33,525 bases of DNA. It comes from an uncultured Candidatus Peribacteria bacterium (GTDB lineage: Bacteria; Patescibacteriota; Gracilibacteria; CAIRYL01; GCA-016699755). How positions within the stretch are numbered: position 1 is the first letter of the stretch; each line of letters begins with the position of its first letter. The position numbers were made by a program, and so were the translations under genes. Below are positions 2,458 through 25,808 of the stretch, piece by piece. The DNA is taken from positions 9,946 through 43,470 of the forward strand of contig CAZOZW010000010.1 in NCBI GenBank assembly GCA_964584385.1, in the 5' to 3' direction. The notes under the pieces are model-generated. The model was not told the DNA's origin, ran no database searches, and worked only from the letters and a program-made list of their open reading frames with translations.

Positions 2458-2499
2458 AATACTGCATTAAAACGTAATCTACCGTCTTAATGCAGTATT
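2458..2499. repeat. 42-bp palindromic element, copy A
   Basis: aatactgcattaa aacgtaatctaccgtc ttaatgcagtatt: perfect 13-bp arms around a 16-nt centre. Confidence 0.9.
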
Positions 2500-2532
2500 C
2501 TATGTCATGCGACAATCTTCGTATTCATCATA

Positions 2533-2567
2533 AAACAAAAAAGCGCCTCACCAGAGGCGCTTTTTTT
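2533..2567. terminator. Bidirectional rho-independent terminator
   Basis: Stem GCGCCT/AGGCGC (2543-2548 / 2555-2560) with a 6-nt loop, an A-run on the left and a T7 run on the right. It lies 16 nt downstream of the stop of the minus-strand gene ending at 2583. Confidence 0.8.
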
Positions 2568-2582
2568 AAACTATATCAAGTC

Positions 2583-3797
2583 TTACTCGGTGCAAATATT
2601 CTCGCACGGAATTCCGTCTCCATCTTGATCGAGTGACTTGACGCCGCAGCTGCTTAAGAAAAACTTCGCTTCTTTGCAATCAACCATTTCGGCACATGTC
2701 GATTTCGATGCGCAGTAGCCCGCCATCGGGTTGCCACCCGTATTCGGGAATAGGGCGCTGCTTTGATCCGCCGCTTCATCATTCGGCAAGCTGCAACTTG
2801 TTTGTTCGGCGATCGTTTCAAGCTGCTGTGTGCCCATTCGGCGTGATTCGTCGCTAAAAATCCATGTCGGGTAACCGGTAATCTCTTTATCTTTGCAAGT
2901 CTCTTCGTCTTCGTCGCAATCGACATAATCGATTTCTGAGATGCTATCGCCGAATAACGCTTTTTGGGTTGTGCAATGTTGGCACCATTCAACCCCGTAA
3001 AATGTTGCGCCGGCATCGGTTACGCAAGTGGCGAATGTCGCCATATCGTTTGTTTCAGCGCTGGTGGTTTGAGAAGTCGAGTTGCTACTGCTACCGCTAA
3101 TGCTCACGCTTGAGCTGGTTTCGGTTTCTTCATCGTCGGTTGATTCTCCTGTTGTAGTATTTTCGGCAGAATCATCGCTCGCGCTTTGATCTGTTTCTTC
3201 GGTTGCGTCGGTATTTGCTTCATCAACAGCCTTTTCCGCCTTGCTCGTGTCATCGACCAACGGTTTGTTGTTCATGCCACGGTAGCGGCATTCAACCAAA
3301 GCGGCTCCCACCAAATCCATTGCTTTGCATTCTTTTTTTACTGCACGCTTTTTGACGATGTGATCTTTCATCATCACTTTTACGTTTTGGCGAAAACACT
3401 GGCGCACCTCTTGCGGAGTAGTCAAACGCTCGTCATTCACACAATCCATTTTCGATTTAACGATTTGCTTCACAAAGATCATCCGTTGCTCTTTGCGTTC
3501 TTTTGCCACTTTTTTTCGCAGATCTTTGCGCATCTCGGCGCATTCTTCTTCGGTGTGCCCACCTTTTTCAATACACTTGTCGACCCAAACATCAGCCCGT
3601 GCCTGACGTACGCCTTGTTTGGCTTGTCGCAATTCTTGCTTGGCGTCTTTCACGTTTTGACGCGCCTCTTTGCGCTCATCTTTGGCTTGTTGAACCTGTG
3701 CTTTGCGCTCTTCGGCGGTTAATGCCTCGGCAGTGGCAAGCGGAGCGGCTAATACGGCAATCATCAGCATTGCCAAAAAACTTTGAATATACTTCAT
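2583..3797 (-). CDS. Secreted multidomain protein: Lys/Glu-rich helical region, acidic Ser/Thr linker, thioredoxin-like CxxC domain, Excalibur Ca-binding domain
   Basis: ORF 2583..3911. ATG 3797 gives a canonical signal peptide, MKYIQSFLAMLMIAVLAAPLATA-EA; ATG 3824 is an alternative start. FYGVEWCQHC..ITGYPTW resembles the thioredoxin-like domains that accompany VKOR. The C-terminal DQDGDGIPCE matches the Excalibur DxDxDGxxCE motif. Confidence 0.75.
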   Translation of the reverse strand: MKYIQSFLAMLMIAVLAAPLATAEALTAEERKAQVQQAKDERKEARQNVKDAKQELRQAKQGVRQARADVWVDKCIEKGGHTEEECAEMRKDLRKKVAKERKEQRMIFVKQIVKSKMDCVNDERLTTPQEVRQCFRQNVKVMMKDHIVKKRAVKKECKAMDLVGAALVECRYRGMNNKPLVDDTSKAEKAVDEANTDATEETDQSASDDSAENTTTGESTDDEETETSSSVSISGSSSNSTSQTTSAETNDMATFATCVTDAGATFYGVEWCQHCTTQKALFGDSISEIDYVDCDEDEETCKDKEITGYPTWIFSDESRRMGTQQLETIAEQTSCSLPNDEAADQSSALFPNTGGNPMAGYCASKSTCAEMVDCKEAKFFLSSCGVKSLDQDGDGIPCENICTE

Positions 3798-3854
3798 AAA
3801 AATGAAAAAGAAATAAAACTTCATCACTATCCGCGAATCGAACGAAAAAATCAA

Positions 3855-3883
3855 ATGCAACGCTTGTAAAAATCTGCTATAAT
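3855..3883 (+). promoter_or_regulatory. Promoter for ftsX with an extended -10 (TGcTATAAT)
   Basis: atgcaa-17-tataat, with TG at 3875-3876. It sits 34 nt upstream of ATG 3917. Confidence 0.5.
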
Positions 3884-3916
3884 CTTTTGATATAACAACG
3901 AATTGAGCCACAAATC

Positions 3917-4885
3917 ATGAACTATTGGGTAACGAGCATAAAACGGGTTTTTGCATATGCGGCAGCCGGAGCATGGCGTAATCGCATTAATCTCTTTTTT
4001 TCGGGGGCGGCGCTTTCATTCCTTTTCTTTTTTATGCATTGCGCCGGGCTGGGCGTTGCCGTCAGCGGTGGCGTGATCGACAACGTGCAACAAAAAATCG
4101 ATATTGCGGTGTTTTTGCAAAATTCCGCCGATTCGTTTCAAGAAGAAGCTTTTCGGTTGGCGCTCGAACGAAAGAAGAAAACCGGCGAGATCCGCGATTA
4201 CTGGAAGCTCGATAAAGACGAAGCGTTTATGATGTTTAAAGAGCAATACCCGGCGCAAACCCGCTTTTTAGAACGCTATCAACTGGCGAATCCACTTTCG
4301 ACCGTGTTCGGCATCACCCCGCAACCGGGCGCCGCAGGAGCTGCCACAATTACCCAGTTCGTGCTCGAAGAGCAATGGCAAACGACCGTCGACCAAAATC
4401 GCTTTCGACAAAGCACCGAAGAGCGGGCGCGGGCGCAGCGCGTTATGACCGTGCTCGAAACAAGCCGCACCTTTATCTACGCTTTGCAAACCTTCTTTTT
4501 TGCCATCGGCTTTGTGCTGGTGCTTTACTTCGTCTCAGAGGCGATTCGTCGCCATCATCGCGAAATGGTGATTATGCGGCTGGTGGGCGCGCGGTTTTTC
4601 TTCATCCGCATGCCGTACTTGATCGAAGGTTTGCTCGTTACTGCAATCGCACTTATATTCAGTATCTTTCTCTTTGCTCGCTTTTTAGATGCCGTCCGCG
4701 CAGCGGCAAACAACATGCTCGCCGGATTGGGCATTGAAGAAAGCTTTATCGAAACGGCGCTCGGCGAATCAACGAGCTCGAACATAGTTGTGACCAACGG
4801 CTTTTTTATGATATTACTTTCAGCGGTGGCGGCTTTTGTCGCGATTGAATGGGCGCTTCGAAAACGTCTGTTCCACCAGATTTAA
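3917..4885 (+). CDS. ftsX: Cell-division ABC permease-like protein FtsX
   Basis: One N-terminal TM, a roughly 150-aa extracytoplasmic domain, then three C-terminal TMs. MRLVGARFFFIRMPYLIEGLL is typical of FtsX. Confidence 0.8.
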   Translation: MNYWVTSIKRVFAYAAAGAWRNRINLFFSGAALSFLFFFMHCAGLGVAVSGGVIDNVQQKIDIAVFLQNSADSFQEEAFRLALERKKKTGEIRDYWKLDKDEAFMMFKEQYPAQTRFLERYQLANPLSTVFGITPQPGAAGAATITQFVLEEQWQTTVDQNRFRQSTEERARAQRVMTVLETSRTFIYALQTFFFAIGFVLVLYFVSEAIRRHHREMVIMRLVGARFFFIRMPYLIEGLLVTAIALIFSIFLFARFLDAVRAAANNMLAGLGIEESFIETALGESTSSNIVVTNGFFMILLSAVAAFVAIEWALRKRLFHQI

Positions 4886-4894
4886 AATGCAGAT

Positions 4895-24511: not shown

Positions 24512-24625
24512 AGTACGGGGAGTATGAGTGATTTTTAAAAATCTGTGAAGCTTTGGTGCTGCAATTTTTGATGGAAATTCGCCTGGTATCATGGCAAAAT
24601 GAAAGCTGCAATATTTAGATGCTCC

Positions 24626-25012
24626 ATGAAAAAAACGATCGAGACTCGTTTGGCGCCGCAAGCGATCGGCCCGTATTCGCAAGCGGTTACGTACAATAAT
24701 ATGATCTATGTTTCGGGGCAGATCGGCTTATTGCCACAAGGCGGCGATATTCCCCAAGATTTTGAAGAAGAAGCGAAGAACGTGTTTTTTAACCTTAAAG
24801 CCGTACTCGAAGCCGGCGGCAGCAAAATAGAACGCGTAGTAAAGGTAACGGTCTACATCACCGATATGAATTTGTTCGATGCGCTCAATAAGCTTTATTG
24901 GCGTTTTTTCCCCGAAAACCACCCCGCCCGCGAAACGGTTGAGGTTTCAAAGCTCCCAAAAGGTGCTCGCATTGAGATCTCGGCGATTGGGTTTATTCGC
25001 GAAGACGTATAA
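24626..25012 (+). CDS. ridA: RidA/YjgF family reactive-intermediate deaminase
   Basis: ORF trimmed to ATG 24626. [39 protein letters not shown] is typical of the family. Confidence 0.9.
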
Positions 25013-25013
25013 T

Positions 25014-25286
25014 TTAAGCTCCAGAATCCATCACCGCTTGCACCTGAGAGCTGGTTGAATTTGCAACATCAGAAACTTCGGCACTTTGCACTTCGGCAAA
25101 TGCCGAGGAGTTTTCAATTGCATCTCTCGATTCGGCGATGGTATCAACCACATTCTCGTTCCACCAATCGGCGATCTCACTCGAATTCTCAACTGCCAGG
25201 TATCCACCGGCGAATAATAATCCGCCGATGGCTGCATATTTCAACCATTTTCTTCGCCCACCCGATTCATTGAATTTTTCTGCCAT
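25014..25286 (-). CDS. Small N-terminally anchored membrane protein (90 aa), hypothetical
   Basis: Basic N-terminus, the TM segment YAAIGGLLFAGGYLAV, and an acidic Ser-rich tail. No SD. Confidence 0.5.
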   Translation of the reverse strand: MAEKFNESGGRRKWLKYAAIGGLLFAGGYLAVENSSEIADWWNENVVDTIAESRDAIENSSAFAEVQSAEVSDVANSTSSQVQAVMDSGA

Positions 25287-25518
25287 AAATAATCGCTAAA
25301 CCTGAATGCATCACCATTTTAAAAATACTTTTTCTATTTTGCAAATCTCCGATTATTCGCTTGCAGAAGAAAGATATGTGATACTTATAAAAACTATTTA
25401 TACAGATGATTTGTTCTTTGCCTGAGAATCTGGTAAAAAGCTGCGGCTGCTCGGATTGCTTTTTTGCAATACCGTAGTGGTACACGAAATTCTTTTACAA
25501 AACCGGGGAGACGGAATA

Positions 25519-25707
25519 ATGGCAAGACAATATCAAGAATCTATCGATGATGTACGATATTCGGTGTCATACCCTGAAAGAAAGTCTCATTATCCCGAGC
25601 CCAAAAAGTGCCCGCACTGTGCAGGCACCGGCAACGGTGAGATGACCGAATGGGGTTTTACCGATTCATGTAGTCATTGTCGCGGAGAGAAAAGATATGT
25701 GAGGTAA
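25519..25707 (+). CDS. Zinc-finger miniprotein (62 aa) with a DnaJ-type CxxCxGxG motif
   Basis: ORF trimmed to ATG 25519, which follows SD GGGGAG. CPHCAGTG ... CSHCRGEK. Confidence 0.6.
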   Translation: MARQYQESIDDVRYSVSYPERKSHYPEPKKCPHCAGTGNGEMTEWGFTDSCSHCRGEKRYVR

Positions 25708-25723
25708 AAGAATGATCTCGATG

Positions 25724-25756
25724 GAGTCGCGTATATTTGCGACTTCATCCTCTTTT
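25724..25756 (+). terminator. Rho-independent terminator
   Basis: Stem GAGTCGC/GCGACTT (one G.U pair) with an 8-nt loop, followed by catcctctttt. Confidence 0.6.
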
Positions 25757-25766
25757 GATTTTATAA

Positions 25767-25808
25767 AATACTGCATTAATACGGTGATCTGCGTTTAAAT
25801 GCAGTATT
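25767..25808. repeat. 42-bp palindromic element, copy E
   Basis: aatactgcattaa tacggtgatctgcgtt taaatgcagtatt. Confidence 0.9.

Follow-up and report, generated by a model that had tools for sequence, protein, structure and literature searches.

A palindromic element of 42 bp occurs six times between the genes of a 33,525-nt stretch of contig CAZOZW010000010.1, which comes from an uncultured Candidatus Peribacteria bacterium and is referred to here as the window. Our analysis suggests that this palindrome is probably the operator of a small autoregulated helix-turn-helix (HTH) protein, with secondary copies at neighbouring transcription units. The gene of the candidate regulator lies next to one of the copies, and this copy has the promoter of the gene built into it. 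The closest homologues of the regulator are encoded on contigs that have palindromes of the same geometry with different arms; protein and site co-vary at three loci. From these observations we infer that the protein binds the palindrome, represses its own gene and acts at the secondary sites. We regard the repeat as real and unnamed, with a probable protein partner.

The copies are named A to F from left to right. A search for the arm pattern AATACTGCATTWA-N16-TWAATGCAGTATT with up to 3 mismatches found 5 sites in the window and none in 100 shuffles. A scan with the 42-nt consensus as a whole, at up to 10 mismatches, found exactly six, beginning at 2458, 7252, 11758, 19340, 20352 and 25767 (0, 1, 0, 4, 0 and 0 mismatches, respectively), against 0.06 matches in shuffled sequence, and no seventh site either in the window or in the adjoining 10 kb of a near-identical JGI contig. 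An independent repeat finder recovered the same six-member family, and a covariance model scored the six copies at 50-64 bits and the best match in related loci at 15 bits. On near-identical JGI contigs, neither the 17.7 kb beyond F on the right nor the 3.7 kb beyond A on the left contains a further copy. An earlier reading of the letters (the sequence-only reading) had described six copies with 13-nt arms, 16-nt centres and related ACG/CGT trinucleotides. The six copies are present at the positions it gave, against none expected by chance, the layout of 13 + 16 + 13 nt is found in six of six, and ACG (positions 15-17) and CGT (positions 26-28) are invariant among them. Arms of the window type read AATACTGCATT, with inner ACG..CGT. 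The ends of the element are AATA/TATT, and the flanks vary. The elements have an overall GC content of 29-40%, with 3 G/C in the 11-nt arm consensus. Their conserved patches, as read from the sequence, are centred near positions 6, 16, 27 and 37, about one helical turn apart, and would thus all lie on one face of the DNA. The confinement to intergenic gaps holds for all credible genes; a single call of a 71-aa open reading frame (ORF) at 19287-19502, which covers D and its terminator, is probably spurious.

The sequence-only reading did not recognise the consensus as a named repeat family, and our searches agree. Among 185,579 species-representative genomes there was no true family member, only 7 single unrelated hairpins. 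A metagenome collection of 241M records gave 0 matches to half-site plus centre; with variable spacing it gave 51 hairpins that have the same 11-nt arms, none with the 20-nt gap or the ACG..CGT centre. IMG/VR had 0 matches, nothing in Rfam reached the gathering threshold or even E <= 1, and the literature, searched for the string, yielded primers only. The repeat finder, the covariance model and a generic geometry scan detected no such palindromes in three relatives, L011 (GCA_024762935.1, the closest), L013 and L067.

The sequence-only reading had suggested looking for an HTH partner, and the gene that adjoins copy B (7310-7729) provides a candidate. When 1.84 billion representatives were searched exhaustively and without a profile, only 13 relatives of its product came up, some of them in Peregrinibacteria metagenome-assembled genomes, such as OGJ51685.1, with a conserved common N-terminal stretch of about 65 aa. 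The two closest homologues stem from the same JGI metagenome sample: P0367 (46% identity to the window protein) is encoded on contig Ga0450804_3331817 (locus L069) and P0368 (36% identity) on contig Ga0450804_3277290 (locus L070). P0368 also occurs on a 49.7-kb contig of an NCBI metagenome-assembled genome. L069 contains two 42-bp elements with arms AATACGTCATT, called G and H here, and L070 contains five (J1-J5), whose arms are AAGAAGACATT and whose inner part reads GCG-N8-CGC. All elements of the window, L069 and L070 have the same geometry, every arm change between the types is mirrored in the opposite arm, and none of these three contigs has mixed arm types. The HTH protein is the sole protein family common to the three loci, and in each a palindrome lies directly upstream of its gene (Table 1); the longer distance of H (164 nt) apparently reflects an insertion. 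The sequence-only reading had regarded conservation at the DNA level, for instance as a protein operator, as no less plausible than an RNA hairpin. That branch gains from a candidate gene only 17 nt from B and from the co-variation of protein and site.

GC contents are 44.7% for the window, 45.8% for L069 and 44.9% for L070. The tetranucleotide correlations of the two sister contigs with the window (0.94-0.96) are the same as between the halves of the window itself, as compared to 0.61-0.80 for relatives, and other short intergenic repeats are common to the window and both sister contigs. Because of this composition and these shared repeats, we infer that the three contigs derive from a single genome or bin. 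At least three protein-site pairs with different arm specificities would then be present in the same population.

In each of the three loci, the gene-proximal copy carries a sigma-70-type promoter. B, J2 and H are alike in having the -35 box at the left junction, the left arm as spacer, the -10 box in the 8-nt centre and the right arm on the expected start site. On the strand of the gene, the match to the -10 consensus is 6/6 in B, 6/6 in J2 and 5/6 in H (TATACT), whereas the centres of the other ten copies match TATAAT at 4 positions or fewer. An embedded -10 box is thus found in 3/3 gene-proximal copies and 0/10 others (Fisher's exact test, p ~0.0035). B and J2 have in common a leader and the first codons (...aaac ATG ACA TTT CAA), which indicates that the unit of promoter, operator and gene is ancestral and that the arms diverged together with the protein. 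As the promoter is built into B, bound protein should shut off its own gene.

In an AlphaFold2 (AF2) model of the window protein based on a 13-sequence alignment (predicted local distance difference test, pLDDT, 89.8), three N-terminal helices form an HTH (residues 3-43, about 97), the linker is modelled with less confidence, and residues 75-137 make up a C-terminal domain of four helices. This model supersedes a single-sequence AF2 model, in which the N-terminus was poor. The top ranks of a Foldseek search are almost all MerR-type winged HTH (wHTH) DNA binders (CadR/MerR, RacA-DNA, pSK1 Par-centromere), none of them significant (best E = 1.5). The pattern TFxELAxxxGK...TVxxFFxRH resembles the MerR/HTH_17 signature; the profiles themselves (MerR, PF13411/PF00376, or HTH_17) did not match the window protein or 12 relatives at E <= 1. 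Weak matches to Sigma70_r4_2 and HTH_33 occur within the family, in relatives only. No phage or plasmid homologue of the HTH protein was found, and PHROGs and PADLOC searches with the orphan proteins of the window gave nothing useful.

The substitutions in the element bear on the question of whether it acts as DNA or as RNA. With D excluded, a single change occurs among the 110 positions of the 11-nt arms, and the 12 "free" positions mostly differ. Departures in the window arms all break pairing, save for one G.U pair made by the single arm change of copy B, and D combines 4 arm changes (3 left, 1 right), 0 of them compensatory, with the lack of a stable fold. The rarity of arm changes, the uncompensated departures and the unfolded D argue for selection on the sequence of each arm. 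The sequence-only reading had stated that arm differences are not compensatory. This is correct within the window, where 0 pairs are changed on both sides, and needs qualification between the three arm types: across the 13 copies, 6 pairs are changed on both sides, a score that 0/500 shuffles reach. Within the arm types, compensatory change amounts to a single pair, in J3. Mirrored changes are expected of a two-fold protein site when the specificity of the protein shifts, and equally of a hairpin, so that this result alone does not decide between a protein site and RNA. The clash at position 12 that had been noted for C, D and E is there (T.T), but the list was incomplete, F being mismatched too (A.A); over the three arm types, 8 of 13 copies lack a pair at position 12/31.

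Some of these features could also be explained if the element acted in RNA, as a second bidirectional intrinsic terminator or as a 3' stabilising hairpin. As RNA, five of the copies in the window have folds of -18 to -21 kcal/mol, the stem is bordered by A/T runs, copy C follows straight after a stop codon with no other terminator, the G.U pair of B forms on the transcribed strand, and the mirrored changes between arm types preserve pairing. We nevertheless consider a role in RNA very improbable. Five copies already lie behind a strong terminator, so that little transcript should arrive at them, while H and J1 are placed in divergent promoter gaps. Moreover, the stems are AT-rich, A, C and D are followed by a weak U-tract or by none, D fails to fold (z = -0.35), mismatches at position 12/31 are frequent, compensation within types is confined to the pair in J3, and no Rfam family matches. 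The intrinsic terminator was rejected on account of the AT-rich stems, the five copies already behind a canonical terminator, the divergent H and J1 and the unfoldable D; the earlier remark that the element is not explained as an ordinary second terminator is thereby upheld.

The sequence-only reading had placed five copies behind a separate GC-rich terminator and copy C next to a stop codon, 35 nt before the next start. Both statements hold: the five copies lie 10-37 nt from the stem end and about 5-30 nt from the T-run, and the start 35 nt from C is the ATG (11722) of a DUF1801 gene. Among the strong intergenic terminators of the window, 5 of 11 have a copy behind them. The copies come to lie behind terminators because the promoter zone in this compact genome starts right after the preceding terminator. 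The secondary copies are situated where the following transcription unit starts rather than where the preceding one ends. Promoter-like sites follow D and E (Table 1), and the stretch after E is homologous to the stretch after D. In L070, promoters are found 50-80 nt past J4 and J1, and the divergent gaps that contain H (L069) and J1 (L070) have no terminator. The left flank of copy C, GCTTTGAA, is similar to the -35 flank of copy H. The orientation of the asymmetric centre has no relation to gene strand or terminator side. For annotation, a "hairpin after terminator" in this genome is to be read as an "operator before next promoter".

Table 1. Features of the 42-bp palindrome system. Coordinates are those of the window; the promoters of J2 and H lie on sister loci.
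Feature	Coordinates	Strand	Details
HTH protein gene	7310..7729	+	139-aa orphan; starts 17 nt past copy B; proposed palindrome binder
Promoter of HTH gene, sigma-70-type	7246..7274	+	-35 TTGCAT (7246-7251), 17 nt, -10 TATAAT (7269-7274)
J2 promoter (L070)			TTGCAA-17-TATAAT; 14 nt before ATG; listed independently by promoter scan
H promoter (L069)			TTGAAA-16-TATACT; 164 nt before ATG
Copy A	2458..2499	no strand	AATACTGCATTAAAACGTAATCTACCGTCTTAATGCAGTATT; between pectate-lyase-like gene 295-2199 and terminator of minus-strand gene 2583-3911
Copy B	7252..7293	+	Proposed master (autoregulatory) operator; 17 nt before ATG of gene 7310-7729
Copy C	11758..11799	no strand	Adjoins stop codon 11800-11802 of minus-strand gene 11800-12315
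Copy D	19340..19381	no strand	Degenerate; in 3.5-kb truB-ligA island
Copy E	20352..20393	no strand	Same truB-ligA island as D
Copy F	25767..25808	no strand	In ~0.8 kb extra DNA between 90-aa gene and uvrC
Terminator of gene 2583-3911	2537..2566	-	GC-rich intrinsic; copy A begins 37 nt past stem
Terminator of gene 6803-7186	7208..7233	+	Copy B begins 18 nt past stem
Terminator of gene 18940-19290	19299..19325	+	Copy D begins 14 nt past stem
Terminator of gene 19937-20308	20319..20341	+	Copy E begins 10 nt past stem
Terminator of zinc-ribbon small ORF (ends 25707)	25720..25749	+	Copy F begins 17 nt past stem
Promoter-like sites	19396..19443	+	TTGACG-17-AAAAAT, TTGAAA-16-TAGAAT; first begins 14 nt past D
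Promoter-like site	20414..20442	+	TTGCCA-17-TTAAAT; begins 20 nt past E; by eye, under scan threshold

The copies also carry traces of their descent. E and F are identical at 39/42 positions in inverted orientation, and D groups with E and F by its free positions. The flanks of the copies are mostly unrelated, with the exception of the terminators preceding D and F, which are homologous (z = 6.5), the promoter-like stretch of D and E, and a 148-nt repeat. J4 and J5 are at the left end of this repeat (L070 12831-12978 and 14331-14478, 91% identical), which indicates that some copies were duplicated along with about 106 nt of flank. The signal of descent in the centres and the mostly unrelated flanks together suggest that the sites multiplied as small modules, in either orientation. 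Next to copy E, a partial extra arm GCAGTATT at 20401-20408, 7 nt past the element, may be the remnant of a slipped or duplicated arm.

Multiplication in this manner brings to mind a selfish palindrome similar to repetitive extragenic palindromes (REPs) or miniature inverted-repeat transposable elements (MITEs). A trans-acting enzyme (Y1/RAYT-type or similar) with its gene elsewhere would recognise the arms, perhaps in the form of a single-strand hairpin, and would have copied the 42-47-nt unit, in either orientation, into harmless DNA behind terminators, with the copy at the HTH gene incidental or co-opted as a promoter. REP families have tens to hundreds of copies in a genome and flank a cognate Y1 (RAYT) gene. 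REPs and REPINs are short extragenic palindromes found mostly downstream of genes (PMC3733652, PMC3337134), with a length of 20-40 bp for REPs, whose definition includes an unpaired GTAG/CGTC tag at one end (PMC3733652). The element shares with them the conserved stems around a variable middle, the occurrence in both orientations, the mostly 3' extragenic location and the restriction to one lineage. The descent visible in the centres, with E and F alike between unrelated flanks, fits as well, and the relative L011 encodes a RAYT-like Y1 protein. However, neither end of the element has a GTAG or CGTC tag, and the element is AT-rich with few known copies. Neither Y1_Tnp nor any other transposase, and no match to a RAYT gene (PF01797, NF047646), was found in the window and the gene tables of loci L010, L066, L069 and L070 (about 70 kb of the organism's DNA); the REP/RAYT branch of the sequence-only reading finds no footing there. 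The L011 protein is below the RAYT cut-off (59 vs 80 bits), and L011 is without such palindromes. A REP-like origin leaves unexplained why each arm type is on the contig of a different HTH paralogue and why a -10 box is present in exactly the gene-proximal copies. We therefore regard it as rather unlikely.

The L011 protein in question (231 aa, 5316-6011) is a Y1_Tnp protein that adjoins PGM and has no REP-like repeats near it; its family comprises proteins of about 224 aa with more than 7,900 matches at about 50% identity. It was followed as a RAYT lead and abandoned, as it could not be traced to the window organism, in which a 232-aa protein at the equivalent position is unrelated.

Comparison with L011 is also informative for the DNA around D, E and F. 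L011 keeps the gene order of the window (PGM, sigma-r4/HARE-HTH protein, MurE, TruB, LigA, RidA, UvrC, SMC_N protein, epimerase and Mur ligase) and is without the 3.5-kb truB-ligA island that contains D and E and without the approximately 0.8 kb before uvrC that contains F. Together with the 17-8-17 architecture, in which a conserved trinucleotide borders the spacer, this recalls a recombination site of the lox/FRT/dif or attC kind, with 17-bp arms and an 8-bp crossover, that serves the capture or shuffling of orphan-gene cassettes. Sites of the lox and FRT type have a 13-8-13 geometry, and attC sites have R''/R' boxes (RYYYAAC...GTTRRRY) and a length of at least 55 bp. Orphan genes followed by a conserved palindrome are likewise reminiscent of integron arrays. 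Yet all of the 8-bp spacers differ, so that strand exchange would fail, and no tyrosine or serine recombinase or integron integrase is encoded in the same approximately 70 kb, which also turns the evidence against the recombination branch of the sequence-only reading. The elements reside inside the islands, not at their borders, have no attC R boxes (GTTRRRY) or L boxes and are shorter than known attC sites, and the embedded promoter would be left unexplained. A recombination site is thus hardly credible, less so even than a role in RNA. The integron attC was discarded as a candidate (no GTT core, 42 bp, no integrase domain), as was a DNA uptake sequence (DUS/USS): outside the palindromes, TACTGCATT with at most 1 mismatch occurs 9 times as compared to about 7.6 expected, and there is no excess of single arms.

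We propose the following model for the 42-bp palindrome as an operator. The product of 7310-7729, in which a linker joins a MerR-like helix-turn-helix at the N-terminus to a helical oligomerisation domain at the C-terminus, would bind the palindrome. Each 17-nt half (AAnAnnnCATT-W-A-n-RCG) would represent a half-site, and the 8-nt centre between the halves would not be read by the protein. Binding would occur as a dimer or higher oligomer, by way of the C-terminal helical domain. Copy B would be the master site, at which bound protein occludes the -10 box and the start of its own gene. The other five copies would be secondary sites that have lost the -10 box and are located between the preceding terminator and the next promoter of mostly orphan or accessory units. 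These units may be repressed or insulated, either by a block to read-through or by bridging between sites. The secondary copies may have arisen by copying of a 42-47-nt module, which at times took along an adjacent terminator or promoter module and could be inserted in either orientation.

Several points weigh against this model. The HTH assignment rests on prediction and non-significant fold matches, and neither Pfam nor NCBIfam has a match for the 139-aa protein of the window. With 42 bp and about 30 constrained positions, the element holds far more information than an ordinary operator needs. The centres of its half-sites are separated by 31 bp, a distance too large for a simple MerR-type dimer, and the model must therefore invoke a higher oligomer or an unusual mode of binding. 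The next start codon lies about 8 to 260 nt from a secondary site and the next promoter 14 to 80 nt from it, with no fixed geometry, and F and J5 may lie in convergent gaps without a gene to control. Spread by copying needs a mechanism that the operator model does not supply. The linkage statistics are partly post hoc, as it was the adjacency of B and the gene in the window that prompted the search. The coverage amounts to about 70 kb of genome (13 copies, three types), so that the locality of the sites to the cognate gene is tentative. Since an ordinary regulon does not explain the size, the near-identity and the spread by copying, there is room not only for a REP-like origin, but also for a role in the organisation of the chromosome.

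In such a role, the palindromes would be centromere-like or domain-organising sites, with which the HTH protein marks and bridges a neighbourhood of 20-30 kb for anchoring, compaction or island silencing rather than for control of transcription gene by gene, and the site at its own promoter would serve autoregulation only. The order of DNA-binding domain, linker and C-terminal helical domain is compatible with this idea, and the closest local resemblance in structure is to RacA-DNA and pSK1 Par-centromere complexes (8csh_A: TMt 0.68, root-mean-square deviation 1.7 A over 51 residues). The palindromic ram sites to which RacA binds are likewise clustered, in 25 regions close to the origin (PMC4914108). 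In the window, the six sites span 23 kb around the gene, and there are none in the adjacent 21 kb; arm types are unmixed between contigs, and the geometry relative to promoters is variable. On the other hand, the clustering is not significant (six points in 52% of 44.7 kb of known sequence, p ~0.13), nor are the fold matches. No ParA, DivIVA-like or SMC-loading partner adjoins the gene, and the assignment of the three contigs to one chromosome is tentative. Taken by itself, we judge a domain-organising function to be quite unlikely. A combined scenario, which we think unlikely as well, assumes diversifying paralogous RacA/Par-like binders, each of which would mark its own 20-30-kb neighbourhood with a private palindrome that spreads in a copy-and-paste manner from the promoter of the gene. 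If true, it would mean territory marking or island silencing with co-evolving, insulated specificities, neither an ordinary regulon nor a REP family.

The operator model gives an orphan protein family a testable function and would explain a conspicuous repeat of an uncultivated bacterium of the candidate phyla radiation. As the three natural pairs differ at defined arm positions (3, 5-7 and 15), they constitute a ready set for specificity swaps aimed at the DNA-recognition code. Long operators that multiply as small modules between terminators and promoters would also blur the line between a regulon and a dispersed repeat.

In this study, the window was also compared with other assemblies. It is 99.95-99.97% identical to contigs Ga0450804_4092529 (49 kb) and Ga0450804_0765353 (5.7 kb) of JGI 3300040801. 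These two overlap near window 4351-4375, and the window appears to be a scaffold of two contigs joined there. The few positions at which the window departs from the JGI contigs are concentrated in an SBF transporter gene (7 in 57 nt, 10906-10962) and an epimerase gene (7 in 466 nt, 31442-31907), which suggests strain-level recombination patches or assembly chimeras; no single-nucleotide polymorphisms between the two assemblies fall inside the elements. MurE of the window has no relative above 53% identity, and its named matches are from Pacebacteria, Gracilibacteria, Peribacteria and Saccharibacteria; the organism is of the CPR/Patescibacteria type. Within the clade, the relatives of GAPDH carry the names Peregrinibacteria and Gracilibacteria, and the JGI homologues of GAPDH stem from other samples. 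The large gap to the right of the window (L010, window-equivalent ~36.9-38.0 kb) contains an RNase P RNA (14701-15076, 118 bits) and a tRNA (15752-15823), which confirms a chromosomal context.

The lineage-specific island behind truB (18825-22399) encodes small membrane proteins besides containing D and E. In L013, an island behind truB (~12600-21200) has proteins of 652 and 1699 aa flanked by its own 81-nt and 37-nt repeats, and in L011 truB abuts ligA; the gap downstream of truB may be an insertion hot spot. Near copy F, a zinc-ribbon small ORF (25456-25707, plus strand) with two CxxC pairs (CPHCAGTG...CSHCRG, DnaJ-type) is uncalled in the JGI annotation; together with its terminator and copy F, it makes up the extra DNA missing from L011. 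Near copy A, a direct repeat of 192 nt (79% identical, ungapped) flanks the pectate-lyase-like gene, with copies at 2242-2433 and 1-160 (plus 31 nt left of the window) and, in L066, at 1943-2134 and 4216-4407. One repeat copy ends 25 nt from copy A, and both keep an open minus-strand frame (61-aa ORF 2227-2412). This repeat may represent a leader sequence, a small ORF or an RNA motif. It was rejected as the template and variable repeat (TR/VR) pair of a diversity-generating retroelement (DGR), because substitutions of every kind occur in it.

Arrays of 7-8-nt units (TAAATCn / TAATTCG) are found in intergenic DNA, often 40-270 nt from a 42-bp element, and look like iterons. They occur in the window (26016-26075), in L066 (~4599-4630), in L069 (1266, 1487-1545 and 5794-5870) and in L070 (784-800, 4697-4735, 8745-8810, 12815 and 12927-12950), and are absent from the relatives L011, L013 and L067. 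Those of L069 are part of a 184-nt repeat (1364-1546 vs 5670-5853, 92% identical) with a GC hairpin. The same contig, which encodes the second HTH paralogue, has a 1056-aa ORF with HNH_4 and RuvC_III matches (Cas9-like) at 1-620 on the minus strand. A replication origin in the divergent gap at 16.3-16.6 kb of the window was considered and dismissed, as there is no excess of DnaA boxes. The 383-aa protein encoded at 15119-16270 (minus strand), which adjoins PGM in L011 too, has an unusual sigma-like architecture with Sigma70 region 4 and two HARE-HTH stretches. Finally, an Rfam match to "Plastid-psbI-rps4 3'UTR" at 12849-12902 (plus strand; 60 bits, gathering threshold 68 bits) is antisense to a tRNA-Ser (12846-12937, minus strand) and almost certainly a tRNA-derived artefact.

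Of the known systems, three resemble the one proposed here in some respects, although it is not demonstrated that it belongs to the MerR, Cluster A or RacA/Par kind. MerR operators are about 18-22 bp long and lie inside a spacer of 19-20 bp. The likeness to MerR/CadR and TnrA/GlnR consists in the small N-terminal HTH, judged by the MerR-like pattern and the predicted fold, and in a two-fold operator over the protein's own promoter. The differences are a 42-bp site that straddles the -10 box, a 17-nt spacer, the wide separation of the half-site centres, the presence of 5-6 near-identical copies of the site, the lack of Pfam MerR/HTH_17 matches and the non-significant fold similarities.

Stoperators, the dispersed sites of Cluster A mycobacteriophages, have a length of 13-14 bp. 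A small HTH repressor of these phages binds a site at the early promoter and many intergenic stoperators, at which transcription is halted, and repressor and stoperator specificities co-evolve into distinct immunity types (PMC9283540, PMC6550527). The arrangement of one HTH protein with a promoter site, dispersed sites and co-evolving specificities is the same. Stoperators are asymmetric, oriented and bound by a monomer (PMC9283540), in contrast to the 42-bp two-fold palindromes of the window, which occur in either orientation on a bacterial chromosome, not a prophage, with housekeeping genes between them.

RacA with its ram sites and pSK1 Par differ in other ways. The ram site is a 14-bp GC-rich palindrome, as opposed to the 42-bp AT-rich palindrome of the window, and a segregation or anchoring role and partner proteins have no evident counterpart here. 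RacA (5i44) and pSK1 Par (8csh_A) are nevertheless the best local, if not significant, structural matches to the HTH protein, and they share with it an N-terminal MerR-like wHTH followed by a linker and a C-terminal helical or coiled-coil domain, as well as palindromes that are clustered regionally (PMC4914108).

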